Shown here one piece after another: positions 3,490-29,906 of a DNA stretch of 32,000 bases. The DNA comes from Bellilinea caldifistulae. GTDB lineage: Bacteria; Chloroflexota; Anaerolineae; Anaerolineales; Anaerolineaceae. The stretch spans positions 90,001 to 122,000 of the forward strand of contig NZ_LGHJ01000010.1 of NCBI RefSeq assembly GCF_001306055.1, given 5' to 3'. Below the pieces are notes generated by a model. It was given only the letters and a program-made list of their open reading frames with translations, had not been told where the DNA came from and ran no database searches. The position numbers and the translations under genes were made by a program. The first letter of the stretch is position 1, and every line of letters begins with the position of its first letter.

Positions 3490-4332
3490 TTGTCTGAATG
3501 GATCACACTGGCTGAAATTGACGAAGCCTCTGGCTTCATCGCAAAACACATCCATGTTCAGCCCAAAACCGGGATCATATTAGGATCAGGATTAGGAGAA
3601 CTGGCTGAACAGATTGAAGATGCGGCAGTTATTCCTTACGCCGAAATTCCGCATTGGCCGGTTTCAACCATCCATGGTCATGCCGGACGATTGATCGTGG
3701 GACGGCTCGAAAACCAACCGGTGATGGTAATGCAGGGCCGCGCTCATTTTTATGAAGGCTATCCAATCAGCAGGATTGGTTTTCCTATTCGGGTCATGCA
3801 GCGCCTGGGTGTGGATGGGCTGATCGTGACCAATGCAGCCGGAGCCATTCATCCAGATTATTTGCCGGGGGATGTGATGTTGATTGTAGATCACATCAAT
3901 CTGGTTGGCATGGCAGGCATGAATCCTCTGCGGGGGCCAAATCTGGATGAATTTGGCGAACGTTTTCCGGATATGAGCCAGCCGTATGATCGCAACTTAA
4001 TGGACTTTTGCCGGCAGGCAGCCAGCCAGGCCGGTATTCTCCTCCGTGAAGGTGTTTACGTCTGGCTGGCTGGTCCCTCGTTCGAGTCACCGGCCGAATT
4101 ACGCTTTTTGCGCACCATCGGAGCGGATGCAGTCGGCATGTCCACGGTTCCTGAGGTGATTGTTGCCCGCCACGGAAAAATGCGCGTTCTTGGCATTTCG
4201 GGCATCTCAAATAAGGCCAATTTAGACGGTAGCACCGTTACCACCCACGAAGAGGTTTTAGAAGCCGGTAAAATTCTGGTTCCCAAACTGTCTGCCCTGA
4301 TTCGGGGTGTTTTGCGGCAGATGAAGGCGTGA
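3490..4332 (+). CDS. punA: Purine nucleoside phosphorylase (PunA type, inosine/guanosine)
   Basis: GIILGSGLG, GRLIVGRL..PVMVMQGRAHFYEGY, VTNAAGA, GPSFESPAELRFLRTIGADAVGMSTVPEV. TTG start preceded by GGAGG. Confidence 0.88.
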   Translation: MSEWITLAEIDEASGFIAKHIHVQPKTGIILGSGLGELAEQIEDAAVIPYAEIPHWPVSTIHGHAGRLIVGRLENQPVMVMQGRAHFYEGYPISRIGFPIRVMQRLGVDGLIVTNAAGAIHPDYLPGDVMLIVDHINLVGMAGMNPLRGPNLDEFGERFPDMSQPYDRNLMDFCRQAASQAGILLREGVYVWLAGPSFESPAELRFLRTIGADAVGMSTVPEVIVARHGKMRVLGISGISNKANLDGSTVTTHEEVLEAGKILVPKLSALIRGVLRQMKA

Positions 4333-11463: not shown

Positions 11464-12282
11464 ATGCCGAATAGTTTTAGTATAGGCCCGATAACCATCC
11501 ATTTGTACGGTGTCATTATTATGTTCGGGGCGATCATGGCGGCATGGTTGTCCGCCCGCCAGGTCAAGCAGCGAAATTTGAACCCCGATTTGGTATGGGA
11601 TATGCTGCCGTGGTTGTTAATCGCCGGCGTAGTTGGTGCGCGTCTCTGGCACATCTTAACACCGCCGGCTTCGATGGTTGAACGCGGTATTACAACCTGG
11701 TACTATCTGACCCACCCTCTGGATGCGATTGCAATCTGGAACGGCGGGCTTGGCATTCCCGGCGCTGTGATGGGCGGCGCATTGGCATTGTACCTCTACT
11801 GCCGTAAAAAGGGATTGAGTTTTGCTGAGTGGACGGATATCATTGCCCCCGGTTTAGCGCTGGCGCAGGCAATTGGGCGGTGGGGTAACTTTGTCAATCA
11901 GGAATTGTACGGCGCACCGACCAATCTCCCCTGGGCAATTTTCATTGACCCGATTCACCGCCTGCCTGAGTTCAAGGATGTAGCCTACTACCACCCCTTG
12001 TTTTTGTATGAGTCAATTTATAACCTGCTCAATATGGCGTTCCTGCTGTGGGCAGGGCGAAAATTCAGCGACCGCCTGAAGAAGGGTGACATCTTTTTAC
12101 TTTACCTGATTATTTACCCGGTTGGGCGATTTTTCCTCGAATTTTTACGCTTGGACCCTTCTCCGTTGGCAGGTTTGAATGTCAATCAAACATTAATGGC
12201 AGTGATTGCGATCAGTTCGGCAGTGGGGCTGTTTTGGCGGCATCGTAAAGGCAGTAACTCTCCCCAAACTGTCAGCGGATAG
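11464..12282 (+). CDS. lgt: Prolipoprotein diacylglyceryl transferase
   Basis: IHLYGVIIMFG, WNGGLGIPGAV, GRWGNFVNQELYG, FLYESIYNL motifs. AAGAGG lies before the ATG. Confidence 0.92.
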   Translation: MPNSFSIGPITIHLYGVIIMFGAIMAAWLSARQVKQRNLNPDLVWDMLPWLLIAGVVGARLWHILTPPASMVERGITTWYYLTHPLDAIAIWNGGLGIPGAVMGGALALYLYCRKKGLSFAEWTDIIAPGLALAQAIGRWGNFVNQELYGAPTNLPWAIFIDPIHRLPEFKDVAYYHPLFLYESIYNLLNMAFLLWAGRKFSDRLKKGDIFLLYLIIYPVGRFFLEFLRLDPSPLAGLNVNQTLMAVIAISSAVGLFWRHRKGSNSPQTVSG

Positions 12283-12316
12283 CGGTTTTTTTTGTGGATT
12301 GAGCGGGTTTGAGGGG

Positions 12317-13261
12317 ATGAAGATGATTTACGCAGAAAATTTGACCAAGCACTTTGCCGATTTTGTGGCTGTGCAGGGGATCAATCTGGATGTGCAGGCC
12401 GGGCAAGTTTTGGCCTTATTGGGGCCAAATGGCGCCGGTAAAACGACGACCGTGCGCATGTTAACCTCGGTGCTGCGCCCTACCAGCGGAATTGCCAGAA
12501 TTGCCGGTTATGATGTGGTTGAAGAAGCCGAAAAGGTGCGCTCATCGGTGGGCGTTTTGACGGAACATCACGGTCTTTACAGCCGTATGAATGCCGATGA
12601 ATACCTGACTTTTTATGGACGCCTTTACCGAATGCCGGATTCGTTGATCGAGCGCCGCAAGAGGGAATTGTTGGAGCAATTTGGATTGGGGGAGGCGCGT
12701 AAAAAGAAACTGGGGGAATACTCCAAAGGAATGCGCCAAAAGCTGGCTCTGGTGCGCGCCTTACTGCACAACCCGCCAGTGCTCCTGCTGGATGAGCCAA
12801 CCTCGGCCATGGATCCGGAGAGTGCCAGAATTGTGCGGGATGCCATCCGTGCTCTGCGTTCGGACCAGCGGGCGGTGATTCTTTGCACCCACAATCTGGC
12901 CGAGGCTGAAATGCTCGCCGATCAGATTGCCATTATCCGCCGCGGCCGGATTATCTTGAATGATGTGCCGGAGCGGCTTAAGCAGTTGCTTCTCGGACCG
13001 GAAGAGTACGAAATCACCCTGCGGAATGGGGCGGGCGTTCCTCCTGAAGTCCTGCCGTTGGGGGTTGTGGTGAGCAGGCAGGAAAACGGCCGTTATGTTT
13101 TTCGGATTGATCAGCCGGAAGAAAAAATTCCGCTGCTGCTGAAACGGTTGCTGGACCAACAATTACCGGTACTTTCCTGCGCGCCTGTGCCACGCAGCCT
13201 GGAAGAGGCGTATTTGAGGGCTGTCAGCCTGCATGAGGAAAACGGCAATGGAAGCAATTGA
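12317..13261 (+). CDS. ABC transporter ATP-binding protein (ABC-2/NatA-like, with C-terminal DUF4162-like extension)
   Basis: Walker A GPNGAGKTT, Q-loop, signature YSKGMRQKL, Walker B LLLDEPTSAMD, H-loop CTHNL. Start moved to MKMIYAENL (12317) to avoid overlapping lgt. Confidence 0.88.
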   Translation: MKMIYAENLTKHFADFVAVQGINLDVQAGQVLALLGPNGAGKTTTVRMLTSVLRPTSGIARIAGYDVVEEAEKVRSSVGVLTEHHGLYSRMNADEYLTFYGRLYRMPDSLIERRKRELLEQFGLGEARKKKLGEYSKGMRQKLALVRALLHNPPVLLLDEPTSAMDPESARIVRDAIRALRSDQRAVILCTHNLAEAEMLADQIAIIRRGRIILNDVPERLKQLLLGPEEYEITLRNGAGVPPEVLPLGVVVSRQENGRYVFRIDQPEEKIPLLLKRLLDQQLPVLSCAPVPRSLEEAYLRAVSLHEENGNGSN

Positions 13262-14663
13262 CATTCGCCCAGCATTGATTATTGCTCAGCGAGAGGTACG
13301 CGATCAATTCCGCGACTGGCGGATCATCTTCCCGATTGTGTTTCTGACCCTGTTCTTCCCGTTCTTGATGAATTTCACGGCGCGTCAGCTGCTTAATTTT
13401 GTCAATCAATATGGAGCAGGACTGGTTGGTGAACGCTTGATCCCATTTCTGTTGCTGATTACGGGCTTTTTCCCGATCAGTGTTTCGCTGGTGATTGCGT
13501 TGGAAAGTTTTGTCGGAGAAAAAGAACGTGGCAGCATTGAACCCCTCTTAACTTCTCCGCTGGCTGACTGGCAGCTATATCTGGGTAAATTACTCTCTTC
13601 AACGGTGCCGCCGCTGGTGGGCAGTTTTCTGGGTATGTCGGTCTACATTAGTGGGTTGCTCATCAACCGCATCCCGTTGCCGGATGCAGAAACCCTGCTC
13701 CAAATCATCGTCCTGACGATTACCCAGGCGGTGGTGATGGTCAGTGGGGCGGTGGTGGTTTCCACCCAGGCGACTTCGGTGCGGGCTGCCAACCTGCTTG
13801 CCAGTTTTATCATCATCCCCATGGCGCTGCTGATTCAAGCCGAAGCGGTGGTGATGTTCTGGGGACGGGATACGCTTTCGTTGTGGTGGATTGTGTTTGG
13901 GCTGCTGGTTTTGGCGGTGCTTCTCATTCGGATTGGGCTGGCGCATTTTCAGCGCGAAGAACTGCTGGGTAGAGAGATTGATGTGCTCAATATCCGTTGG
14001 ATCTGGCGGATCTTGTGGGGTAGTTTTCACGGTGGGGCTCGCAATGTCTTGGATTGGTACCGGAATGTGCTGGGTAAGACTCTCCTTGATCTGCGCGGTA
14101 GCTTACTGGCTGCCGTCTTGCTGGCCGTGATTGTGATTATTCTGGGCGCCCAGCAAGCCGACCGTTTTCTTTTGATCTTGCCGGAGGGAGATTTTCAGCA
14201 ACGCGTTCGCGAATTGGGCTTCAACCTGCCGGTAGGTGGAATTGGGAGCGTTCAGCAAATCTTTTTCCAGAATGTGCGCGCGTTGGTGATTGGACTGTTG
14301 TTGGGCTTGTTTTCTTTCGGGGTATTGGGCACACTACCTCTGTTTGCAACCCTTGGTTTGTTGGGGTATTTCACCCGGATTATGGAAATTAATCAATTGC
14401 CTGCCGCTCAAATCATCCTTTCGGGAGTGGTGCCTCACGGAATTGTCGAGGTACCGGCAATCCTGCTTTCAACGGCGGCGGTGTTGAGAATTGGCTTTTT
14501 ACTGGCCACCCCGATGAAGGACAAGACGGTGGGTGAAGTATTTTTGATGGCGATTGCCGGTTGGATGCAGGTGATGGTTGGATTGGTTGTGCCTTTGCTG
14601 CTTTTGGCAGCCGTGATCGAATCCTGGATTACGCCGCTGATGATCTTACGCTTATTTGGCTGA
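13248..14663 (+). CDS. Fusion membrane protein: ABC-2 type permease (N-terminal half) + SpoIIM-like domain (C-terminal half)
   Basis: N-terminal half has ~6 TM helices typical of ABC-2 permeases next to their ATPase. C-terminal half carries FFQNVRALVIG...GVVPHGIVEVPAILLS, the PHGxxExPA signature of stage II sporulation protein M family proteins. GAGGA lies 8 nt before the ATG at 13248 (an alternative ATG is at 13233). Confidence 0.7.
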   Translation: MEAIDIRPALIIAQREVRDQFRDWRIIFPIVFLTLFFPFLMNFTARQLLNFVNQYGAGLVGERLIPFLLLITGFFPISVSLVIALESFVGEKERGSIEPLLTSPLADWQLYLGKLLSSTVPPLVGSFLGMSVYISGLLINRIPLPDAETLLQIIVLTITQAVVMVSGAVVVSTQATSVRAANLLASFIIIPMALLIQAEAVVMFWGRDTLSLWWIVFGLLVLAVLLIRIGLAHFQREELLGREIDVLNIRWIWRILWGSFHGGARNVLDWYRNVLGKTLLDLRGSLLAAVLLAVIVIILGAQQADRFLLILPEGDFQQRVRELGFNLPVGGIGSVQQIFFQNVRALVIGLLLGLFSFGVLGTLPLFATLGLLGYFTRIMEINQLPAAQIILSGVVPHGIVEVPAILLSTAAVLRIGFLLATPMKDKTVGEVFLMAIAGWMQVMVGLVVPLLLLAAVIESWITPLMILRLFG

Positions 14664-14700
14664 TTTACCTGCGAATCATTCTTTCTGGAAGGGCAAACGC

Positions 14701-15465
14701 ATGGATCAAATTGTTTTTCTGGGTACCGCAAACGCCATTCCCGCTATCGGTCGGGAGAATACCCATCTGCTCATCCGCCATGAACACGAAGCAATTCTGG
14801 TGGACTGCGCTGCCAATCCAATTGTGCACCTGCAGCGCGGAGGGGTCAATCTGGAACAGATCCATCATTTGATTTTGACTCATTTCCATCCCGATCATGT
14901 TTCAGGTGCCCCGCTGTTCTTGATGGATTTATGGCTTTTGGGGCGTACAAAACCGCTGTATATTTACGGCCTGGAACACACCCTTACTCGCCTGCAAGCC
15001 ATGATGGACTTATATGACTGGCGCAGCTGGCCGGGATTTTTCCCGCTCGAATACCGCATTATACCGGAGGTAGAAGGTGCGGCCCTTCTCGAAATGAATG
15101 GTCTGGAAATTATCTCCTCGCCGGTTAAGCATCTGCTGCCCACCATTGGTATACGGATTACCTTCACGGATATCCATAAGACAGTCGTCTATTCGAGCGA
15201 TACCGAACCTTATGAGGCAGTTGTCAGGCTGGCGAAGAAAGCGGATGTGTTGATTCACGAATCGGCCGGGCATTCGATTGGCCATTCTTCGGCGCGCCAG
15301 GCGGGGGAAGTTGCCCAAAAAGCCGGCGTGAAAAGTCTGTACCTGATTCACTATCCTGCCAATGTGACCAAAGAGGAACTCATCCGTGAAGCGCGGAGCG
15401 TCTTTGGGGGTTCCGTTTTTGTTTGTGAAGACTTTATGGGAATTGACCTGACAAAGGGTGATTAA
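14701..15465 (+). CDS. MBL-fold metallo-hydrolase (short RNase Z/BN-like)
   Basis: LTHFHPDH (HxHxDH) motif, MDQIVFLGTANAIP N-terminus, later HES/H residues. GGAAGGG lies upstream of the ATG at 14701; the 14656 start on the track is a TTG overlapping the previous gene. Confidence 0.8.
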   Translation: MDQIVFLGTANAIPAIGRENTHLLIRHEHEAILVDCAANPIVHLQRGGVNLEQIHHLILTHFHPDHVSGAPLFLMDLWLLGRTKPLYIYGLEHTLTRLQAMMDLYDWRSWPGFFPLEYRIIPEVEGAALLEMNGLEIISSPVKHLLPTIGIRITFTDIHKTVVYSSDTEPYEAVVRLAKKADVLIHESAGHSIGHSSARQAGEVAQKAGVKSLYLIHYPANVTKEELIREARSVFGGSVFVCEDFMGIDLTKGD

Positions 15466-15466
15466 A

Positions 15467-15970
15467 TCACCAGCCGAGCAGGAAAGGCTCCCATTCGGTA
15501 TATTCCGTCAGGTGGCGACCGAAAATATACAGGGCAGAAGCAGGCGGTTCAGCAGGCGGACGGAGTAACTGCATGCCGGCTTCGGCCAGCGTGCGGCCGC
15601 CTTTGCGGTGATTGCATTGCGGACAGGCGGTAACGACATTCGTCCAGATGTGCTGACCGCCTAAATGGCGCGGGATGACATGGTCAATGGTCAGGTCACC
15701 TGCACGCTTACCGCAATACTGGCAGGTGTAATTATCACGGCGGAACACCTCGCGGCGGGTCAGCTTTACCTTGGGGCGCGGACGATGCACCATGTGTTGC
15801 AGGCGGATGATCGAGGGGCGTGGGAAGGACGATCCAGCGGTGTGAATCTCCCCCCGTCCATTCATCACCATGGATGCTTTATGTGTCAAAATCAAACCAA
15901 CCGCACGGCGTAAGTCGCAGACATTGATTGGCTCGAAATTGGCGTTGAGTACCAGCACATTATCCGCCAT
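15467..15970 (-). CDS. HNH endonuclease family protein (stand-alone, COG1403-like)
   Basis: CQYCGK...DHVIPRHLGG...N.VTACPQCNHRKGGR: zinc-ribbon CxxC pairs flank the H-N-H residues. Confidence 0.85.
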   Translation of the reverse strand: MADNVLVLNANFEPINVCDLRRAVGLILTHKASMVMNGRGEIHTAGSSFPRPSIIRLQHMVHRPRPKVKLTRREVFRRDNYTCQYCGKRAGDLTIDHVIPRHLGGQHIWTNVVTACPQCNHRKGGRTLAEAGMQLLRPPAEPPASALYIFGRHLTEYTEWEPFLLGW

Positions 15971-16075: not shown

Positions 16076-16987
16076 GTGAAAATCCTGATTGCGGGCGGTT
16101 CCGGTCTGATTGGCTCTGCTTTGGCCCGTCATTATTTGGAAAAGGGGCAGGAAGTTTACATCCTCAGTCGGCGCGGATCGGCAGCGGTCTTACCGGCGGG
16201 TGCTAAAGGAGTAGAGTGGGATGCCCAATCAGCCAAGGGGTGGGGCGACCTGATGAATGAAATGGATGTGGTCATCAACCTGACCGGAGAGAACCTTGGA
16301 GCGGGGCGCTGGACAGAGCAGCGCAAACAACGTTTTTACACCAGCCGCATCCAATCCGGTAAGGCGTTAATTGAAGCCATGCGTCAGGCTGTGCGAAAAC
16401 CCGGTGTGCTGGTGCAGTCATCGGCGGTTGGTTATTACGGGGATGGCGGTGAGCAGGTGCTGGATGAATCCAGTCCGCCGGGTAAGGATTTTCTGGCGGG
16501 TTTGTGTGTGGATTGGGAAGATTCAACCCGCGAGGCCGAGTTCATGGGTGTGCGTCGGATTGTTCTGCGCACCGGTGTGGTGCTGGCTGAGGGAGCGGAG
16601 GTGTTGAACCGTTTGCTTTTGCCATTCCGCCTGTTTGTTGGAGGGCCATTGGGCAGTGGTAAGCAATGGCTGCCGTGGATTCACATGGCGGATGTGGTCG
16701 GAGCGGTGGATTTTCTGGTTGAAAATCCAAATCTTGCCGGGGTTTTCAACTTGAGTGCCCCCCAACCGGTTCAAAATGCCACCTTTGGGAAAACTCTGGC
16801 GCGTATTTTACGCCGGCCTTACTGGCTGCCGGTGCCTGCCTTTGCGTTGAAACTGCTCCTGGGCGAGATGAGTAAACTGGTGCTGGAAGGTCAACGAGCC
16901 ATCCCCAAACGGCTGATTGAGGCGGGTTATCCTTTTCGATTTTCGGAGCATGAAGCTGCACTGCGGGATTTACTGGTCAAGGTTTGA
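16076..16987 (+). CDS. TIGR01777-family NAD-dependent epimerase/dehydratase (YfcH-like, C-terminal DUF1731)
   Basis: Rossmann fold MKILIAGGSGLIGSAL. WIHMADVV and the C-terminal G.RA.PKRL.EAGY.F.F pattern. GTG start preceded by GGAGGTG. Confidence 0.85.
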   Translation: MKILIAGGSGLIGSALARHYLEKGQEVYILSRRGSAAVLPAGAKGVEWDAQSAKGWGDLMNEMDVVINLTGENLGAGRWTEQRKQRFYTSRIQSGKALIEAMRQAVRKPGVLVQSSAVGYYGDGGEQVLDESSPPGKDFLAGLCVDWEDSTREAEFMGVRRIVLRTGVVLAEGAEVLNRLLLPFRLFVGGPLGSGKQWLPWIHMADVVGAVDFLVENPNLAGVFNLSAPQPVQNATFGKTLARILRRPYWLPVPAFALKLLLGEMSKLVLEGQRAIPKRLIEAGYPFRFSEHEAALRDLLVKV

Positions 16988-19610
16988 GCGGCTGAAGAGC
17001 ATTTTGCAGCAGGGTTTCGCCGATGGTTTGCGCCAGTTGAGGGTTGTTTTCTTCCAATACGATGGCAACCGCCAGGGGTGTCCCGCCCCATTGGGGGAGT
17101 GTTCCGCCGATAAACCATGTGTAGGTGGTCGAGTCGTATTGCTGGGCCGAAACAGCCTGCCAGATAGGAAAATCCTGAGAAGCAAGGCGATTGACTGCAG
17201 CCGAGACGGACTGTTCATTCCCAAAAACTACCACCGGGCTGCCGGAGGGTAAAATGACCCGCCCCTGATGAGGAGTTTCCACCGATACGGCAAGGCGTGG
17301 ACTGGGACGGGAACCGTTGTTGGTCAATGCGGCGGCGGCCTGTGCCATTTGTAAAGGAGTTACTTTGACCGCGCTTTTCCCAATACTTGCCAATCGGCTG
17401 CTGGTCAATTGATCTGCCTGAGAAGGGGGGGCAACATCCAGCCGGATTTCCGGCGCGCTAAAGAAACCCAGAGCGGTGAAAAGTTCACGCATTTGGGCAG
17501 TGCTTATCGAGCGGCTCATTTCTACCAGGGCCGCCGGACAGCCGACTTCAATAGCCGTTTCCAGGCTGAGCGGTGTCCGCGGCGGACGGGCGCATGTCAG
17601 CATCTGATTGTCGTGAATATAAGAAAGGTTGAGCGGCAAGACCGGGAGACTGCCTTTTTCGCTTAAGTAGGCATACAGGAACGGTCCCACAATCGTTGCC
17701 GTGGGATACTGACCCTGCGTAGCGCGGTTGACAAAAGGTGCAGCCGGATTGTTGAGCCATTCAAGGTAGCGGTCATCGAGCTGATTGGGGTCGTAGGAAG
17801 GGTGAGAGGCAATTGTCAGGATCTCGCCGCTGCGGGCGTTTAGTAAAACAACTGCGCCGCGGTGATTTTCCATCAGACCGTCCGCAACCCGCTGTAATTC
17901 CAAATCGAGACTGAGGCGCACGTCCAGTCCGTCGGGTGGCTGGGAGTACATCAGTTCTGCCAGCCAGATGCGCGAAGCGGGGTTGCCCTGCAGTCCGCTC
18001 AGGTAACCATCGAGGGAGGCTTCCAGCCCGGCCTTTCCGAAGCGAGGATTGATGTAGCCAATCGTGTTTCCCAAAGGCGGGTAGAGCAGCACACGGTCAA
18101 GACTACCGCGTTCACCGGTTGTGGTGGCAATCCTCTCGCTGCGCCGGTCGAGCAGATCACCCCGCGGGACAAAGCGTAAATTGACCATCCAGCGGTTGTT
18201 ATCGGGGCGGGCCAGTAAGTTATCCGCACGGACGATACTCCACCAGCCAGCGATGGCGGCAAGTGCGGCAAAACCTGCCAGGAAGAGAGCAGTAACCCAG
18301 GTGTAAGCGCGCGGCTGTTGGATCGGCAACGGCGGCTGGGTGTGCGGCTGGCTGGCCCAAAGCAGCATTCCCACGGCAATGAAACTGGTAACCAGCGATG
18401 AGCCGCCGTAGGAAACGAATGGCAGGGTAACCCCGGTGAGGGGTAGAAGGCGCAGGTTGCCTCCCATAATCAAAATAGCCTGAATGGCGAAGTAAATCCC
18501 GATGCCTGCCGACAAGAAGCGCTGGAAGGTGGTGCGCGCCGCAAGTGAAATACCAATACAGCGGTAGGTCAGAAGGGCAAACAGTGCGATTAATCCCAGA
18601 ATCCCCGCCAAACCAGTTTCTTCGGCGATTGCCGCGGCAATGAAATCGGAGTGAGCGACCGGTACCAGCCCGGGACTGCCAAGCCCGATTCCCGTACCCA
18701 GCAATCGGCCGGCAGCAACCGAGATCAATGATTGCACAACCTGAAAAGAGCGGTTGACCGGGTCTGCCCAGGGGTTCAGCCAGGTTTCGATGCGCAGGCG
18801 GATAACGTCAAAGACCAGCGTTCCGGCAAGTGCGGCTGCCAGCAAGAACAAACCGCTGATGATCAAAATCCTTCTCCGTCCGGAAGCCAGAAAGATCACA
18901 AAAGTATAAATCCCTAAAATCAGGGTTGCAGCACCCAGATCACGCTGAAGGACCAGCATCAGGGCTGCCGAGGCGGTCATGATTAAGGTGGGGGCGAGGA
19001 GTTCGGGCAGCCGAAAGTGAAAAGGAATCCGCTCAGCCAGATAGGCAGCCAGATAAACCACCAGCAGCAGTTTTAATGGCTCGGAAGGCTGGAAATACAA
19101 CCCGCAACATCCCAGCCACAAGCGCGGACCTTCGCCTGCCGGGTATGTACCCAGTAAAAAAGTTAAACCGGTCAGCAGCAGGCCAATTGTCAACCAGAGA
19201 TATTTGTAACGCCGCAGCCAGATGAATACTCGCGGGTAGCGACTGATCAGAATCAGCAAGATGATTCCAACACTCAGCCAGAGGGTTTGGCGATAGCCCA
19301 GAGATTCATCCAACCGGTAAATGGTGACCAATCCCCAACCACTCAACAAGCTGGTGAGGGGCAAAAGATACGGATCGTGTTCTTCAAACTGGCGATTGAG
19401 AAGGCGGTAAGCCAGACTGAACAGCACCAGCCAGCCTGCCCAGCCAATCCAGTGCAGCCAGCGGTACCCTACCTGAAAAGTGTGCAATCTGACGGCGGGG
19501 GAGAGGGTCAGAATCAGGCTGGAGAGAGTTACCGCCAGCGCAGAAATCCCCATCAGCCGGCGCTCCAGTGAATTTTGCAAAGTGGCAGCCGGAGGGAAGA
19601 GAAAGTTCAC
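16977..19610 (-). CDS. Fusion of SEDS (FtsW/RodA) peptidoglycan polymerase with a class-B PBP pedestal + transpeptidase-fold domain (active-site motifs degenerate)
   Basis: Res 20-420 carry SEDS motifs FQPSEPLKL, RDLGAATL, VAHSDFIAAAIAEETGL, LPLTGVTLPFVSYGGSS. An extra TM lies at res ~437-460. Pedestal shows PRGDLLDRRSERIA and GKAGLEASLDGYL. Transpeptidase fold shows GAVVLLNARSGEILTIASHPSYDPN, NRATQGQYP, VTPLQMAQAAAALTNNG, YTWFIGG, PLAVAIVLE. Confidence 0.85.
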   Translation of the reverse strand: MNFLFPPAATLQNSLERRLMGISALAVTLSSLILTLSPAVRLHTFQVGYRWLHWIGWAGWLVLFSLAYRLLNRQFEEHDPYLLPLTSLLSGWGLVTIYRLDESLGYRQTLWLSVGIILLILISRYPRVFIWLRRYKYLWLTIGLLLTGLTFLLGTYPAGEGPRLWLGCCGLYFQPSEPLKLLLVVYLAAYLAERIPFHFRLPELLAPTLIMTASAALMLVLQRDLGAATLILGIYTFVIFLASGRRRILIISGLFLLAAALAGTLVFDVIRLRIETWLNPWADPVNRSFQVVQSLISVAAGRLLGTGIGLGSPGLVPVAHSDFIAAAIAEETGLAGILGLIALFALLTYRCIGISLAARTTFQRFLSAGIGIYFAIQAILIMGGNLRLLPLTGVTLPFVSYGGSSLVTSFIAVGMLLWASQPHTQPPLPIQQPRAYTWVTALFLAGFAALAAIAGWWSIVRADNLLARPDNNRWMVNLRFVPRGDLLDRRSERIATTTGERGSLDRVLLYPPLGNTIGYINPRFGKAGLEASLDGYLSGLQGNPASRIWLAELMYSQPPDGLDVRLSLDLELQRVADGLMENHRGAVVLLNARSGEILTIASHPSYDPNQLDDRYLEWLNNPAAPFVNRATQGQYPTATIVGPFLYAYLSEKGSLPVLPLNLSYIHDNQMLTCARPPRTPLSLETAIEVGCPAALVEMSRSISTAQMRELFTALGFFSAPEIRLDVAPPSQADQLTSSRLASIGKSAVKVTPLQMAQAAAALTNNGSRPSPRLAVSVETPHQGRVILPSGSPVVVFGNEQSVSAAVNRLASQDFPIWQAVSAQQYDSTTYTWFIGGTLPQWGGTPLAVAIVLEENNPQLAQTIGETLLQNALQPLKP

Positions 19611-20497
19611 GGTTTGAGGTATTTATCCACCAGCAAGGCCAGTTTTTGGCGGGTTTCCGGCGGGATGCGAGCGGGATCGGTGATCAGCGCTTTTTCCAGT
19701 GCGCGGCTACATTCGCAATCGGTATTTTCATCCAATCGGGCTGCCAGCGTGCGAATGGCCTGTTGGGCTGCTGCAGTATTTTGGGAGAGAGTGCGGATGA
19801 CCATTTCGACATTGACCGGTTCTTCAGCCAGATGCCAGACATCATAATCCGTAATGTGCGCCAGGCTGGCGTAGCACATTTCCGCTTCGCGTGCCAGAAA
19901 GATCTCCGGACAGGTGGTCATGCCGATGATCGAAATGCCCCACGCCCGGAAGAGATGCGATTCGGCGCGGGTTGAAAACCGCGGGCCTTCAATGGTGATG
20001 AACGTCCCGCCCTGATGAGTTTCAACGCCGGTGCTGAGAGCAGCTTCATACAGCTGACGGGAGAGACTGGCACAATACGGGTCTGCTGTGCTGATGTGAG
20101 CGACCAATCCCTCTCCGAAAAATGAACGTTTACGGTCACGGGTGAAGTCAATCACCTGATCGGGAATAACGAAATTGCCGGGTTTGTAATCGTGGCGCAG
20201 TGATCCGCAGGCGCTGACGCCGACCACAAAACGCACCCCCATCTGTTTCAGGGCGTAGATGTTGGCGCGGTAATTCACTTCTGATGGGAGAATGTGATGG
20301 CCAATCCCGTGGCGGGCGAGAAACGCAACCCGTGTGCCTTCCAGACTGCCAAGCAGGATCGGTGCGCTGGGTTTGCCAAAAGGCGTGGTGACTTCAACCG
20401 ATTGAACATCTTCCAGCCCTTCAAAATGATACAGGCCGGAGCCGCCGATGATTCCCAAAATGGCTTGTTGACTCATGCTAATCTCCCTTTGCTTCAA
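19607..20497 (-). CDS. mtnP: S-methyl-5'-thioadenosine phosphorylase (MTAP)
   Basis: GIIGGSGLY, FLARHG.GH...PSEVNYRANIYALK, GPRFSTRAES..FR.WG..IIGMTTCPE. 4-nt overlaps with both flanking genes. Confidence 0.88.
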   Translation of the reverse strand: MKQREISMSQQAILGIIGGSGLYHFEGLEDVQSVEVTTPFGKPSAPILLGSLEGTRVAFLARHGIGHHILPSEVNYRANIYALKQMGVRFVVGVSACGSLRHDYKPGNFVIPDQVIDFTRDRKRSFFGEGLVAHISTADPYCASLSRQLYEAALSTGVETHQGGTFITIEGPRFSTRAESHLFRAWGISIIGMTTCPEIFLAREAEMCYASLAHITDYDVWHLAEEPVNVEMVIRTLSQNTAAAQQAIRTLAARLDENTDCECSRALEKALITDPARIPPETRQKLALLVDKYLKP

Positions 20498-20931
20498 TTG
20501 GATTTTTTTGGTTCCATTTCAATTCGGAAAGTGAGCTGACCGCAGCGCAGTTCGTCACCGGGAACGAGCACTGCCCGGGCAGTCAAGCGCTCGCCGTTCA
20601 GGTAACTCCCGTTGGTCGAATTCAAATCCTCAACCCACCACTGGTTTTGTTGATAGGTAAAACGGGCATGACGGGCAGAAACTGTTTCATCTGGCACACT
20701 CAGGTGGCAAAGCGGATCGCGTCCCAGAATGACCTCACTGGTCTGAAAACGGGTTACTTCCTCGGCTGGCCCATCAAGCGGGGTGATCAATAAGGCGGGG
20801 ATGCTTTCGTGGGTAAGTTCCTGCGTTCTTCCGCGCAAGTCGCGCCAGATCACGCTGAACGCCCAGTACAAGAAAGCATATAACGCAAGGGTAAAAAGGA
20901 TGCGAAGGATGAGAACCAGAATACCGCTCAT
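20494..20931 (-). CDS. FhaB/FipA-like protein: N-terminal TM helix + C-terminal FHA domain
   Basis: TM helix MSGILVLILRILFTLALYAFLYWAF. FHA pattern VILGRD..C.L.V.D..VSARHARF......W.VEDLNSTNGSYLNGERL. Start set at the ATG at 20931 (after the upstream stop at 20939); the 21003 start on the track would overlap by 65 nt. Confidence 0.78.
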   Translation of the reverse strand: MSGILVLILRILFTLALYAFLYWAFSVIWRDLRGRTQELTHESIPALLITPLDGPAEEVTRFQTSEVILGRDPLCHLSVPDETVSARHARFTYQQNQWWVEDLNSTNGSYLNGERLTARAVLVPGDELRCGQLTFRIEMEPKKSN

Positions 20932-20938
20932 GCTGGCA

Positions 20939-21703
20939 TTATACTGGAGGTTGGGCAGGGGATGTACCGCCAACGGAGGTGGATTCTCCGCCATCTTCGC
21001 CATAAATCAGAGTGAAACCGGCCAAAGAGATGACATCACCCGGGAAAAGAGTGGTCTGGGTGATGCGCTTACCATTGACAAAAGTCCCTCCGGATGAGTT
21101 GAGATCGAAAAGGAGGGTCTGATTTTTCGTGCGGCGAATTTGAGCATGTGTGCGAGAAACCCGCAGGTCTTCGATGACCAGCTGGTTATCACTGCGCCTG
21201 CCGATGTTGATGACCGGTTGATCCAAGGGGAAAAACCGGCTGCCATGCAGAATCAAGTAAGCCCGGCTGGCGAATGTGGAAGGATCGGCTTCGCTTTCGA
21301 CTGGGAGGTGCAAGACAGCCGTGGAACCCGGCAGGGTATCCTGATAGGCAGCGGTGATGCGGGGTTTGCCGGGTGGTTGGCGTGGGTCGCCGACCACCTG
21401 AATCACGGGCGGTGCAGCAAAGGATGCGCCTGCTTCACGCACGGTTTCGAGCAAGGCCTGGTTCAACCAGTTCAGCCAGTCGGGGTTGTTTTGCCATGTG
21501 GCTGCTTCTTGTGGGTGCATGGCAAATACCAGTACATTTGGCAAGGGCTGGTTATCCTGATTTTCTACCAGCAGTTGTTCACGCAAAGCTTCGACGATTT
21601 GAACCGCAAGATTGGGGTGCTCCCTGCGCCAGGTCAATGCCGCAAGCCGGTTTTCGATCAGATCTTTCAGACGGGATTCGATTTCATCAAGGCGTGATTT
21701 CAT
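20939..21703 (-). CDS. FhaA-like protein: N-terminal DUF3662-type domain + C-terminal FHA domain
   Basis: N-terminus MKSRLDEIESRLKDLIENRL... with PNVLVFAMHPQE and PVIQVVGDP blocks. C-terminal FHA INIGRRSDNQLVIEDLRVSRTHAQI......L.DLNSSGGTFVNGKRI. Confidence 0.78.
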   Translation of the reverse strand: MKSRLDEIESRLKDLIENRLAALTWRREHPNLAVQIVEALREQLLVENQDNQPLPNVLVFAMHPQEAATWQNNPDWLNWLNQALLETVREAGASFAAPPVIQVVGDPRQPPGKPRITAAYQDTLPGSTAVLHLPVESEADPSTFASRAYLILHGSRFFPLDQPVINIGRRSDNQLVIEDLRVSRTHAQIRRTKNQTLLFDLNSSGGTFVNGKRITQTTLFPGDVISLAGFTLIYGEDGGESTSVGGTSPAQPPV

Positions 21704-21706
21704 ACT

Positions 21707-21718
21707 TTATAATTATAA
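21707..21718. promoter_or_regulatory. Palindromic double -10 element (TTATAATTATAA) in the 34-bp divergent gap
   Basis: Perfect 12-nt palindrome. TATAAT reads on the + strand at 21708-21713 and on the - strand at 21717-21712. It is the only non-coding DNA between the fhaA-like start (21703) and the archease start (21738). Confidence 0.45.
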
Positions 21719-21737
21719 GACCAGTCGAGGGAAGAAG

Positions 21738-22145
21738 ATGAATAAAGCGGGATTTGAGGAACTTCAACATACTGCAGATTGGGCATTGAGGGTTTGGGCG
21801 CCCGACCGGGCCGAGCTGTTCCGGCAGGCTGCGATGGGGATGAACACCCTGATGGGATTGAAGTTAGAAGGCCAACCCATTCGGCGGGTTGATCTTCAAC
21901 TGACCGCCGAGGACGATGAAAGTTTGCTGGTTGCTTTTTTGAATGAAATCCTGTTCTATCTGGAAATTGACCGAATCGGGTTCGAGGATTTTCCCTTAAA
22001 ATTAAATGGCAACAGGTTGGATGCCGAATTGTGGGGCAAACCAATCCGCAGCATCGAAAAACCGATCAAGGCAGTCACCTTTCACAATCTCGTCGTGCAA
22101 CATAGCGCAGAGGGATTGGAAGCCCGATTGGTGTTTGATGTGTAG
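21738..22145 (+). CDS. Archease (RtcB activator/chaperone)
   Basis: N-terminal [16 protein letters not shown] (H-T-A-D signature) and C-terminal [17 protein letters not shown] lies upstream. Sits immediately upstream of rtcB. Confidence 0.85.
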
Positions 22146-22156
22146 CGAGGTGCGCC

Positions 22157-23608
22157 ATGATTCGAATACAAGACCTGAACAAAATCAGCGATTATGAGTG
22201 GGAGATTCCAAAGTCGTATCGGCAAGATATGCGCGTAGCCGTGCGGTTGTTTGTTACCCGGCGGCTGCTGGAAGCCGCATTGCAAGATTTATCCATTGAA
22301 CAGGCGATTAATGCAGCAACCCTGCCGGGAGTAGTTGAACCGGTGGTGGTCATGCCGGACATGCATCAGGGGTATGGGTTTCCAATTGGGGGAGTTGCGG
22401 CAACCCGTTACCCAAACGGAGTCATTTCACCGGGGGCAATTGGTTATGACATCAACTGCGGCGTGCGTTTGCTGGCTTCGACTATTCCTTTAGAAGCAGC
22501 CGAAGAACGTTTGGATGATCTGGCCAATGCGCTCAATCATTATTGTCCCAGTGGTGTGGGCAGTGAGGGATCCATCCATCTGACCACTGCCGAACTGGAT
22601 GCGGTCTGCCGTCAGGGAGCGCGCTGGGCGTTGAAAAAGGGCATGGCCAGTGAGGAAGACTTACGCCGTACCGAGGAAAACGGCTGCCTGGAAGGGGCTG
22701 ATCCGGCTAAGGTCAGTCAGCGTGCAAAACAGCGCGGCATGGCTCAGCTGGGAACGCTTGGAGCGGGCAATCACTTCATCGAGGTGGATGTGGTTGATCA
22801 AATTTTTGACGGAGAGGCTGCCGCGGCAATGGGTTTGCAGGAAGGTATGTTGGCCCTGATGATTCACTGCGGTTCGCGCGGGTTTGGCCATCAAATCTGT
22901 ACGGATTATGTGCAGGACTTGCAATCGGCCGTGAGGCGGTATGGCATTCAGCTACCCGACCGCGAACTGGTTTGCGCGCCGTTAGATAGCCCGGAGGGTC
23001 AAAATTATCTGGCTGCCATGCGCTCGGCGGCAAATTACGCATTTTGCAACCGTCAGATACTGGCTTACCACGCCCGGCGTGCCTTTGAGGAGGTGTTTGC
23101 CGGAAGCGGTCTGCGCTGGCAGTTACATCAGGTGTACGACATTGCCCACAACATGGGCAAGGTGGAGACTCATGAAGTGAATGGCCGGAAATTGAAAGTT
23201 TGTGTGCATCGCAAAGGGGCTACCCGCGCATTTGGGCCGGGTCACCCGGAACTGCCGGATGCCTACAAACCCATCGGCCAGCCGGTATTGGTACCGGGCA
23301 GCATGGGTACGGCTTCCTGGGTGCTCATTGGAACGGAAGACAGCATGGCGCGTTCGTGGGGCTCAACCTGTCATGGGGCAGGGAGAGTGCTCAGCCGCAA
23401 TAAGGCGAAAAAAGATTTTCGTGGCGAGCGGTTGCGGAATGAATTAGAACAGTCCGGTATTCACGTGCGGGCTGGCTCGATGTCCGGTCTGGCAGAAGAA
23501 GCCCCAATGGCCTACAAGGATGTGGATGAGGTGGTCGAAACCGTCAGCGGGGCAGGGATTGCCCGAAAAGTTGCCCGGCTGCGTCCGGTAATTGTCATCA
23601 AGGGCTAA
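22157..23608 (+). CDS. rtcB: RNA 3'-phosphate/2',3'-cyclic phosphate ligase RtcB
   Basis: [56 protein letters not shown] motifs. At 483 aa there is no intein-sized insertion. Confidence 0.93.
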
Positions 23609-29130: not shown

Positions 29131-29832
29131 TCAGGGATTCAGTTTGGCCAGTTCTTGTTCAATAGTGTCAAAGAGTTCTGCCTGACCGACTAATTGACCG
29201 TTGACATTGAAAGTGGGCGTACCGGTCACACCCAAGCCGCTGGCGTAACGGGCATCATCGAGTACCCGCTGCTGATACTGGCGGCTGTTATAGCAGCGGT
29301 CAAAGGCAGCCGTATCCAGACTCAACTGGCGGGCAATACCTTTGAGCATTGCATCGTTCAATTCTGCGCCAAAATTGGCAAAGACATAGTCATGATATTC
29401 CCAGAATTTGCCCTGATCGAGCGCGCAATAAGCCGCCTCGGCAGCCCGGTACGACTCCGGGCTGATAAAGCTGAGCGGCACATATTTGAAATAAACTTTA
29501 CCGGTAGCAACGTACTCTTCGACCAACCGTTTTTCAGACCTCTCCCAGAAATCCCGGCAGTGAATGCACTTAAAGTCCGAGTACTCTTCGATTTTGATGG
29601 GGGCGTTTGGGTCTCCAACGGCTTGACCGTCCATTTGTGGGCGGTTGATGATCTCCGGTTTGGCAATCCGGTCCGCGCTGGCAGGTTGATTGGATACAAT
29701 CAATAAAGCTGCAATGGCAATTGCCACAACCGAAATGACGCTGATCAGGATGATCCGGTTACGCTGTTCCTGTTTGCGGCGTTGTTCACGTAATGCGACC
29801 TTCCGGCTGGCTTCTTTCGCTTTCGCGGGCAT
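29131..29832 (-). CDS. DsbA-family thiol:disulfide oxidoreductase, membrane-anchored
   Basis: Basic N-terminus then TM helix (IILISVISVVAIAIAALLIV). Thioredoxin-fold active site FKCIHCRDF (CxxC). C-terminal GVTGTPTF. Start placed at the ATG at 29832, which has GGAGG 4 nt upstream; the 29853 start on the track lacks a Shine-Dalgarno. Confidence 0.8.
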   Translation of the reverse strand: MPAKAKEASRKVALREQRRKQEQRNRIILISVISVVAIAIAALLIVSNQPASADRIAKPEIINRPQMDGQAVGDPNAPIKIEEYSDFKCIHCRDFWERSEKRLVEEYVATGKVYFKYVPLSFISPESYRAAEAAYCALDQGKFWEYHDYVFANFGAELNDAMLKGIARQLSLDTAAFDRCYNSRQYQQRVLDDARYASGLGVTGTPTFNVNGQLVGQAELFDTIEQELAKLNP

Positions 29833-29906
29833 TTTTCCTCCGTACATCGGCAAAATTGTTTAATGTTGAACAAATTTTGCCATAAATGGTTTTATTTGTC
29901 CAGTTG

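Follow-up and report, generated by a model that had tools for sequence, protein, structure and literature searches.

A SEDS::class B penicillin-binding protein fusion of Bellilinea caldifistulae whose transpeptidase half is predicted to be a pseudoenzyme throughout its lineage

In current models, a SEDS protein and its class B penicillin-binding protein (PBP; class B, bPBP) form a coupled pair of polymerase and cross-linker, and the separability of activation from catalysis in the bPBP is known from engineered point mutants. The two-gene pair of M. tuberculosis, RodA (Rv0017c) and PbpA (Rv0016c), lies in a fhaA-fhaB-pstP-rodA-pbpA-pknA-pknB cluster, and PbpA is represented by structures 3LO7 and 3UN7. 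The bPBP selectively activates its SEDS partner in an allosteric manner (PMC12713402; also the main text of PMC12516126). The catalysis of B. subtilis PBP2b is dispensable though the protein is essential, as seen with an S-to-A mutant, and asymmetric division of C. difficile still proceeds with SpoVD(S311A), in dependence on its SEDS partner SpoVE (PMC12713402). Natural SEDS-bPBP chimeras of about 900 amino acids (aa) have been catalogued as well. The main text of an InterPro survey counts 117 of them, mostly from Actinomycetes, terms them 'bifunctional' bPBPs, gives them the architecture glycosyltransferase (FtsW/RodA/SpoVE), pedestal/PBPA_dimer and transpeptidase, and proposes that they serve elongation; the survey assumed bifunctionality, and its main text holds neither an analysis of the SxxK, SxN and KTG motifs nor a mention of Anaerolineae (PMC12516126). 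Here we describe a fusion gene of this architecture in a stretch of 32,000 nucleotides (nt) from Bellilinea caldifistulae (contig NZ_LGHJ01000010.1, positions 90,001 to 122,000; hereafter the window). A previous reading made from the letters alone (the sequence-only reading) had presented the joining of the two proteins as a departure from the usual separate SEDS and bPBP. The fusion is real but not novel, given the 117 catalogued chimeras and the PBP halves of Coriobacteriia fusions in the PDB, deposited as 'peptidoglycan glycosyltransferase' under 4MNR (Eggerthella lenta) and, among others, 4JBF, 4N1X and 4QJG (Atopobium parvulum).

The gene is an open reading frame (ORF) of 877 codons that begins with GTG. 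Its protein is identical over 877 of 877 residues to RefSeq WP_061914685.1 of B. caldifistulae, a cultured member of the Anaerolineaceae (Chloroflexota; Anaerolineae), where it is named only 'FtsW/RodA/SpoVE family cell cycle protein'. The frame proposed earlier was confirmed, and all nucleotide coordinates of the sequence-only reading were correct on re-reading. The GTG start is supported because residues F5, P6, R18 and L19 near the N-terminus are conserved across the fusion homologues and because orthologue gene calls take the same long start, with a 4-nt overlap with the upstream stop; residue 20, which would be the alternative ATG (Met) start, is Leu in 43 homologues. The long, GTG-initiated form is therefore the true product of the gene. 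Its parts, all on the minus strand, are the following:

16977-19610, minus strand: SEDS::pseudo-bPBP fusion gene (RodA::PbpA type, 877 aa), recognised by ORF, Pfam, RefSeq identity, conserved N-terminus and orthologue gene calls
19371-19610, minus strand: N-terminal extension, residues 1-80, with two additional helices (12-42 and 53-74 by AlphaFold2/DSSP) ahead of the canonical SEDS core; the NCBIfam RodA model aligns only from residue 81
18336-19370, minus strand: SEDS glycosyltransferase core, residues 81-425 (PF01098, match to 6BAR, invariant residues)
18645-18647, minus strand: codon of D322, which corresponds to the catalytic Asp essential in SEDS polymerases (HSDF on HTDF; invariant in 121 of 121)
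18231-18335, minus strand: cytoplasmic linker and eleventh core transmembrane helix, the native bPBP anchor, residues 426-460 (model helix 433-460; two-gene versions)
17859-18230, minus strand: PbpA-type pedestal or N-terminal domain, residues 461-584 (weak PF21922, Foldseek, fixed length)
16977-17858, minus strand: transpeptidase-like domain, a predicted pseudoenzyme, residues 585-877 and the stop codon (PF00905, pLDDT, dN/dS)
17685-17696, minus strand: former SxxK, now T639-I-V-G642 (PBP2 alignment, homologue surveys)
17592-17594, minus strand: codon of C673 in the beta-hairpin region, probable disulfide partner of C691 (aligned to the second PbpA Cys)
17535-17543, minus strand: former SxN, now G690-C691-P692, of which only the structural x-residue Cys is kept (aligned to S281-C282-N283 of M. 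tuberculosis PbpA)
17148-17162, minus strand: former KTG strand beta3, now W817-Q-A-V-S821 (MAFFT against intact relatives, homologue surveys)

The PBP half was recognisable as a transpeptidase by family but not by its catalytic residues. Transpeptidase PF00905 matched residues 585-779 with an E value of 3e-20 and 73.1 bits against a cut-off of 22.1, over profile positions 1-191 of 299 only. The motif sites read NRATQGQYPTATIVG at residues 628-642, GCP at 690-692 and WQAVSAQ at 817-823. A phmmer alignment against the PDB set YPTATIVGPF on YPPASTVKPY of E. coli/Yersinia PBP2, so that T639 stands in the place of the Ser and G642 in that of the Lys, and GCP aligned to S281-C282-N283 of M. tuberculosis PbpA. 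These alignments bear out the replacement of SxxK by TIVG and of SCN by GCP noticed in the sequence-only reading, at the nucleotides listed above. It had also set aside SIGK (742) and SAVK (746), the only SxxK tetrads of the domain, and both indeed align to the non-catalytic IGQG...TPLQ block. The loss of KTG stood as well, but its register did not: in a MAFFT alignment with 47 intact relatives K-T-G falls on A819-V820-S821, one residue away from the QAV first proposed. This shift is immaterial because Lys and Arg are absent from residues 809-835 and no K[TS]G occurs in the whole PBP half. SxxK, SxN and K(T/S)G taken as membership tests for a D,D-transpeptidase, the PBP half failed all three. 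Because the Ser nucleophile, the general-base Lys, the Ser and Asn of SxN and the Lys of KTG are lost, neither acyl-enzyme formation nor cross-linking by the PBP half would be expected. These results support the conclusion that the module is unable to act as an acyl-serine transpeptidase, and beta-lactam acylation of the fusion is predicted to be negative.

One element of the former active site has a structural rather than a catalytic counterpart. In PbpA the x-residue of SxN forms a disulfide with the beta-hairpin region, as seen in 3UN7 (PMC9974482). In sequence, the two PbpA cysteines have C691 and C673 as their aligned counterparts, and these probably form the same disulfide pair. The fold-stabilising Cys pair is kept while its catalytic neighbours are replaced.

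The same replacements were found across the family. In a close set of 120 full-length homologues (48-100% identity, from sources naming Bellilinea and Anaerolineaceae; 121 sequences with the query), the Lys column of SxxK never held Lys and the nucleophile column held T, A, S, P, N or G. The SxN site read GCP in 116 of the 121 sequences, and Lys was missing from the KTG column of the close homologues. W817 was present in 121 of 121 close sequences and in 110 of 135 global representatives; it is specific to the clade, a small residue (Ala or Gly) standing at the same site in intact PBPs. A scan of 185,579 species genomes yielded 80 loci. Among these, all 24 single-ORF fusions that came from Anaerolineales/Anaerolineaceae, Caldilineaceae and Thermoflexales were degenerate, and so was the PBP of two Anaerolineae-lineage loci with separate SEDS and PBP genes (L028 and L035). 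The loci outside this pseudo-PBP group were for the most part neighbouring rodA and pbpA genes from Actinomycetota, from Clostridia and from some Chloroflexota, together with four fusions of independent origin; they held S-x-x-K in 47 of 47, S-x-N in 46 of 47 and K-T/S-G in 44 of 47 cases, and the exceptions look like truncated or misaligned ends. An exhaustive phmmer search of 1.84 billion cluster representatives, with the PBP half as query, gave 380 matches at E <= 1e-30. Among the best 150 of these 380, which were analysed, the Lys column never held Lys, K[TS]G was found in 0 of 141 and C673 was kept in 124 of 125; 50 of them were full-length fusions and about a dozen were true stand-alone pseudo-PBPs. 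The survey of orthologues for TIVG, GCP and QAV thus agreed with the sequence-only reading, the general-base Lys, the Ser and Asn of SxN and the Lys of KTG being absent in all family members examined.

We then compared how the parts of the fusion have evolved. Nei-Gojobori estimates of the ratio of nonsynonymous to synonymous substitution rates (dN/dS, omega), from four orthologues at 84-88% identity (six pairwise comparisons), lay at about 0.05-0.07 in the SEDS half, at 0.03-0.09 in the pedestal and at 0.04-0.09 in the transpeptidase-like domain. Comparison of the transpeptidase and SEDS halves, put forward earlier as a check, therefore found strongly purifying selection on both. Mean pairwise identity over the 121 sequences was 63% in the SEDS half, 56% in the pedestal and 44% in the transpeptidase-like domain. 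Within the latter, the former nucleophile and KTG positions lie at the median variability of the domain, the x-x of SxxK drifting likewise, and G690, C691, P692 and W817 are among its most conserved positions. The pedestal measures 124 aa and the first transpeptidase segment 54 aa in essentially every lineage, and no other extracellular part of the fusion is conserved as rigidly as the pedestal. The region from motif 1 to beta3 spans 202-226 aa in intact PbpAs and 164-183 aa in most pseudo-PBPs; it is down to 101-131 aa in L009, L011, L012, L014, L021, L022 and L025, with the pedestal unchanged. Both cysteines were lost together in most of these reduced lineages (L009, L012, L014, L021, L022 and L025). 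All in all, the active-site region is eroding stepwise while the pedestal stays frozen, and the rates support the view that the PBP module is maintained by purifying selection despite its putatively dead site.

The SEDS half showed the opposite picture at its catalytic positions. FTSW_RODA_SPOVE PF01098 matched residues 104-421 (E 4e-69; 233.6 bits against a cut-off of 26.4; profile positions 37-352 of 356), T. thermophilus RodA 6BAR aligned over 320 residues at E 3e-33, and RodA/FtsW structures matched at E 1e-29 to 3e-33. The motifs QPSEPLK (174-180), RDLG (223-226), HSDFIAAAIAEE (320-331) and LPFVSYGGSS (396-405) were at the residues given for them earlier, and HSDF of the fusion aligned to HTDF of T. 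thermophilus RodA, of which 6BAS is a D-to-A variant at the position equivalent to D322. P175, E177, K180, D224, S321, D322, E330, E331 and S400-S405 are invariant in 121 of 121 sequences, which confirms the claim that this half is intact; in the N-terminal extension R41, W54, W60 and D79 are invariant. From these residues we infer that the SEDS half would be an active lipid II-polymerising glycosyltransferase. NCBIfam equivalog models scored below their strict cut-offs (ftsW, 241 against 337; rodA, 201 against 337), and the half is therefore not assigned to FtsW or RodA by score.

The two halves are joined by a helix, residues 433-460 in the model, that the sequence-only reading had described as one extra transmembrane helix. 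The helix is there, but it is not an addition. Stand-alone pseudo-PBP genes (L028, L035, P0334 and others) open with Met and a short tail followed by the anchor helix, which identifies helix 433-460 as the membrane anchor that the bPBP natively carries at its N-terminus. Behind it, the PbpA pedestal family PF21922 (PBPA_dimer/PBP_dimer_2) matched the query weakly, with 14.2 bits against a cut-off of 27, and is a precomputed match in many fusion homologues; the Pfam search gave no match to PF03717 in the fusion protein. Pedestal invariants include R468, N471, R473, R483 and G484. An AlphaFold2 model of the fusion, built from a 69-sequence alignment, reached a mean pLDDT of 89.5 and a pTM of 0.81, with pLDDT mostly above 90 in the transpeptidase-like domain. 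In Foldseek the PBP half matched bPBPs at E 1e-19 with TM scores of 0.74-0.79 overall. M. tuberculosis PbpA gave the best matches (3UPO and 3UN7; about 445 columns, TM 0.74-0.78); 4MNR and 4JBF, from Eggerthella and Atopobium, were also among the best (TM 0.75-0.79). The PF00905 match, the structure prediction and Foldseek agree with the PBP2/PbpA-like pedestal and transpeptidase fold recognised at the outset, and the PBP half is predicted with high confidence to keep a PbpA-like penicillin-binding fold with anchor and pedestal.

We next placed the PBP halves in a neighbour-joining tree, with the motif columns masked and 100 bootstraps. The 27 degenerate halves formed one clade in 100 of 100 bootstraps, and their nearest intact relatives were stand-alone PbpAs of Chloroflexota (L031, L024 and L041). 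Intact fusions from Actinomycetota (L026), Coriobacteriia (L037), Lachnospiraceae (L038) and Clostridiales (L053) sit outside this clade: L026 groups with L037, and L038 and L053 branch separately. Since intact fusions and unfused pseudo-PBPs both exist, fusion and catalytic loss are separable, and the tree placement indicates that fusion arose several times and catalytic loss once. The 'hard-wired SEDS-activator' of the sequence-only reading therefore holds as a fusion with a dead PBP, but not in so far as fusion would be the cause of the loss. Most likely, a single catalytic loss took place in the common ancestor of the Anaerolineae/Caldilineae/Thermoflexia lineage, independently of the fusion event.

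Several loci deserve mention beside this tree. Stand-alone pseudo-PBPs with their own Met, a short cytoplasmic tail and a transmembrane anchor are encoded in L028 (5437-8390) and L035 (2308-5072), in both cases after a separate SEDS gene, and occur among the proteins as P0334, P0342, P0348, P0357, P0367, P0373, P0375, P0376, P0381, P0386, P0389 and P0391. They would fit either a catalytic loss before fusion or a re-splitting of some fusions. L032, a Chloroflexota locus (11970-14528, minus strand), has the two FHA genes and an unfused SEDS with 46% identity to that of Bellilinea, the closest one outside a fusion; no PBP gene lies downstream of this SEDS gene, and an intact class A PBP is found about 5 kb off on the other strand. 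L078, a 5.8-kb high-GC contig labelled Anaerolineaceae, carries an intact PbpA together with SEDS and two FHA genes, in another arrangement. It was rejected as an intact paralogue: its SEDS and PBP are closest to those of Actinomycetota and other loci, and it is probably mis-binned. L020 is labelled Cellvibrionaceae yet carries a degenerate fusion of the Anaerolineae type, and looks mis-binned too.

Taken together, we consider it likely that the fusion is a synthase of the RodA-PbpA type, made of a polymerase and a non-catalytic activator or scaffold bPBP, with cross-linking done elsewhere. In such a machine the N-terminal SEDS half would polymerise lipid II, and the C-terminal pseudo-PBP would keep the anchor, pedestal, core fold and Cys-Cys staple of PbpA. 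The anchor and pedestal would serve SEDS assembly and allosteric activation and probably the docking of regulators, for which two FHA proteins encoded upstream are candidates. That the pseudo-bPBP acts as activator or scaffold is what we infer, in line with the published role of bPBPs and with the engineered dead mutants; the earlier proposal that the module is kept as scaffold or regulator and not as acyl-serine transpeptidase finds support in the motif loss, the low dN/dS and the rigid pedestal. Cross-linking of new glycan strands would be left to other enzymes, and the enzyme in question would most plausibly be a class A PBP. Class A PBPs with intact GT51 and SxxK/SxN/KTG were found from metagenome-assembled genomes labelled Anaerolineae/Anaerolineales (P0153 and P0180). 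We hold as evenly balanced the wider proposition that the RodA-type synthase of the whole deep Anaerolineae/Caldilineae/Thermoflexia lineage of filamentous Chloroflexota has run with a pseudoenzyme bPBP since its common ancestor, that the indispensable job of this bPBP is anchoring and pedestal activation, that the machine is blind to beta-lactams, and that polymerisation and cross-linking are carried out by physically separate enzymes.

Some of the data weigh against this interpretation. Neighbour-joining may overstate the monophyly of the pseudo-PBPs through long-branch attraction of fast-evolving sequences. The omega values are approximate, though far below 1, because dS was 0.6-2.7 and thus near saturation. 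Taxon labels of metagenome-assembled genomes are loose, and the evidence for class A PBPs is at the level of the class. Finally, selection on the transpeptidase-like domain, judged by dN/dS, is as strong as on the pedestal, and conservation is high at GCP, W817, W832 and E853, so the domain may be more than passive ballast and bind, for instance, a ligand or partner. Developed further, this last point leads to an explanation that overlaps with ours, departs from it solely in the task given to the transpeptidase-like part, and that we regard as rather unlikely, in which the domain is a non-catalytic ligand-binding or sensor module that recognises stem peptide, nascent glycan or a protein partner within or close to the former cleft and targets or gates the polymerase. 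It would account for purifying selection as strong as on the pedestal (omega 0.04-0.09), for invariants of the clade that have no counterpart in intact PBPs (W817, and G690 and P692 flanking the Cys), and for the retained NRAxQGxYPPG approach to the cleft. In contrast, the canonical cleft positions drift at the median rate of the domain, and the cleft-wall region is shorter by 30-50 aa in most lineages and by about 100 aa in several in which the Cys pair is also lost, while the pedestal is kept; an invariant bulky Trp at beta3 would fit a filling of the cleft at least as well.

A new catalytic mechanism resting on other residues, with C691 or T639 as nucleophile or with some other peptidoglycan chemistry, appears very improbable. 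Pseudoenzymes reportedly relocate catalytic residues at times, and here C691 and C673 do not vary within the close family, and conservation is also high at E853 and W832. However, E853 and W832 are fold residues, because they are equally conserved in canonical PBPs, and no basic residue lies near beta3. Cys691 was rejected as a nucleophile: it is the x-residue of SxN, which in PbpA takes part in a structural disulfide, its partner C673 is co-conserved, and both cysteines are lost jointly in most reduced lineages. Thr639 was rejected as well, its column holding Ala, Pro, Gly or Asn in many members and its Lys, SxN and KTG partners all being gone. The absence of the motifs from a single sequence and a PF00905 match over just 191 of 299 positions would also be what a sequencing or assembly error, or a pseudogene decaying by neutral drift, produces. 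We give this practically no credence, since the identical protein is in RefSeq from a cultured strain, the same substitutions turn up again in over 250 independent sequences, both of isolates and of metagenomes, the frame stays open across divergence at the level of classes, omega lies far under 1 and the fold prediction is of high confidence.

The fusion gene is the last of a tightly packed minus-strand cluster of FHA, FHA, S-methyl-5'-thioadenosine (MTA) phosphorylase and fusion genes, and faces a convergent gene at its 3' end:

20939-21703, minus strand: FHA gene in the FhaA position, 254 aa, first of the cluster (PF00498)
20494-21003, minus strand: FhaB/FipA-like FHA gene, ORF of 169 aa (PF00498; best NCBIfam model FhaB_Rv0019c, below cut-off)
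19607-20497, minus strand: MTA phosphorylase gene, upstream of the fusion gene and overlapping its start by 4 nt (TIGR01694, 307.8 bits against a cut-off of 274.85)
16076-16987, plus strand: convergent gene of a TIGR01777/yfcH-like oxidoreductase (family match)

The true start of the FhaB-like gene is probably further downstream, because its orthologues are called at 144-145 aa. The order FHA-FHA-(X)-SEDS-PBP is common to Chloroflexota, Actinomycetota and Clostridia, and this conserved synteny makes the locus orthologous to the fhaA-fhaB-pstP-rodA-pbpA cluster of actinobacteria. Neither a PP2C phosphatase nor a Ser/Thr kinase was found among the window ORFs scanned or the syntenic gene calls, and MTA phosphorylase occupies the pstP slot. 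Adjacency of MTA phosphorylase and SEDS genes was seen in at least 22 loci (L001-L018, L020, L021, L028, L029, L035 and L041); in L041 the phosphorylase gene lies beside separate, catalytically intact rodA and pbpA. The operon of a cell-wall synthase thereby includes a gene for methionine salvage. The 3' ends of the fusion and oxidoreductase genes overlap by 11 nt (16977-16987), as they do in the orthologous loci L081, L083 and L084, which leaves no intergenic room for a terminator. Around the operon, Rfam families and an excess of promoter- or terminator-like sites were looked for and nothing rose above background. No other PBP gene is present in the window, nor within 10 kb on either side in about 25 Anaerolineae-lineage loci.

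Other genes of the window are noted for the record. About 10 kb from the fusion lies a DsbA/thioredoxin-like gene (29131-29853, minus strand), whose syntenic counterpart in L081 matches the Thioredoxin_4/DSBA Pfam families; it could be relevant to the extracellular C673-C691 pair, or its proximity could be coincidental. An archease-RtcB pair (21612-22145 and 22157-23608, plus strand) adjoins the FHA genes on the opposite strand and is transcribed away from them, and the position of RtcB is retained in many Anaerolineae-lineage loci. Just beyond the oxidoreductase gene, an HNH endonuclease gene (15467-15970, minus strand) and a gene of the metallo-beta-lactamase fold with a weak Anti-Pycsar Apyc1 match (14656-15465, plus strand) are kept in close orthologous loci. 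The gene at 13233-14663 (plus strand) encodes a membrane protein of 476 aa with the unusual pairing of ABC2_membrane_2 and SpoIIM, and an ABC ATPase gene adjoins it in a syntenic locus. A second PNP_UDP_1 gene (3490-4332, plus strand) is distinct from that of the MTA phosphorylase and encodes a true purine-nucleoside phosphorylase, with NF006054 and TIGR01700 both exceeding their cut-offs.

The underlying principle, activation by a bPBP without catalysis, has been anticipated; a bPBP that is naturally dead, fixed in a lineage and still conserved would be independent evolutionary evidence for the separation of the two functions. If this is true, evolution has already performed the separation-of-function experiment on bPBPs. 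What has been kept without catalysis is the anchor, the 124-aa pedestal and the core fold, and the residues of the cleft and a portion of the helical subdomain have proved dispensable. Having failed all three catalytic-motif tests, the fusion does not belong under penicillin-binding transpeptidases or bifunctional synthases; surveys based on domains would miscount it as a bifunctional synthase and penicillin target, and it is almost certainly neither. Coming from a cultured thermophile, the Bellilinea protein is an attractive target for structural and biochemical work on a single-chain, covalently pre-assembled SEDS-activator, with the intact Coriobacteriia fusions as positive controls.

How, then, does this locus compare with the systems described so far? 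No report of a natural, lineage-wide pseudo-transpeptidase bPBP, fused or not, was found in the literature searched, which yielded the chimera catalogue PMC12516126 and papers on engineered mutants; a paper on Chloroflexota genomics contained nothing about PBPs of Anaerolineae. RodA and PbpA of M. tuberculosis share with the Bellilinea locus two FHA genes upstream in the same order and SEDS followed by PBP, but they are two genes and PbpA is an active transpeptidase acylated by beta-lactams. The clusters also differ around them: in Bellilinea MTA phosphorylase stands at the place of pstP, and instead of downstream kinases there is a convergent oxidoreductase gene. The PBP2 chains of the RodA-PBP2 complexes of T. 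thermophilus (6PL5/6PL6) and E. coli (8TJ3) are matched by the Bellilinea PBP half. Unlike the fusion, these complexes consist of two polypeptides; their transpeptidase is active, and their canonical PF03717 pedestal bears a head subdomain.

The nearest likeness in architecture is found in the RodA::PbpA fusions of Coriobacteriia, in which, as in Bellilinea, one chain holds SEDS, a transmembrane anchor, a PbpA-type pedestal and a penicillin-binding fold, and FHA genes lie upstream. The C-terminal half of one such fusion, the 971-aa L037, matches 4MNR at E 2e-115 and 4JBF at 1e-108. In contrast to Bellilinea, these fusions keep STYK/STFK, SVN and KTG, and by the titles of the structures their PBP halves were crystallised with covalently bound penicillins and cephalosporins. 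The Coriobacteriia fusion arose independently, because it belongs to a different branch of the PBP tree. With the catalogued 'bifunctional' chimeras the Bellilinea protein shares a SEDS and a bPBP in one chain; its glycosyltransferase residues are present, whereas its transpeptidase residues are absent. In this it resembles the engineered dead bPBPs, which also lack transpeptidation and in which SEDS-dependent synthesis persists, with another PBP supplying or bypassing cross-linking. Those, however, are single point mutants of canonical enzymes made in the laboratory, whereas in the Bellilinea lineage all three motifs have been replaced naturally, the replacement is fixed in the lineage and the site is partly deleted. 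SEDS-bPBP fusion as such was already known, and the lineage-wide pseudo-transpeptidase is the new part.

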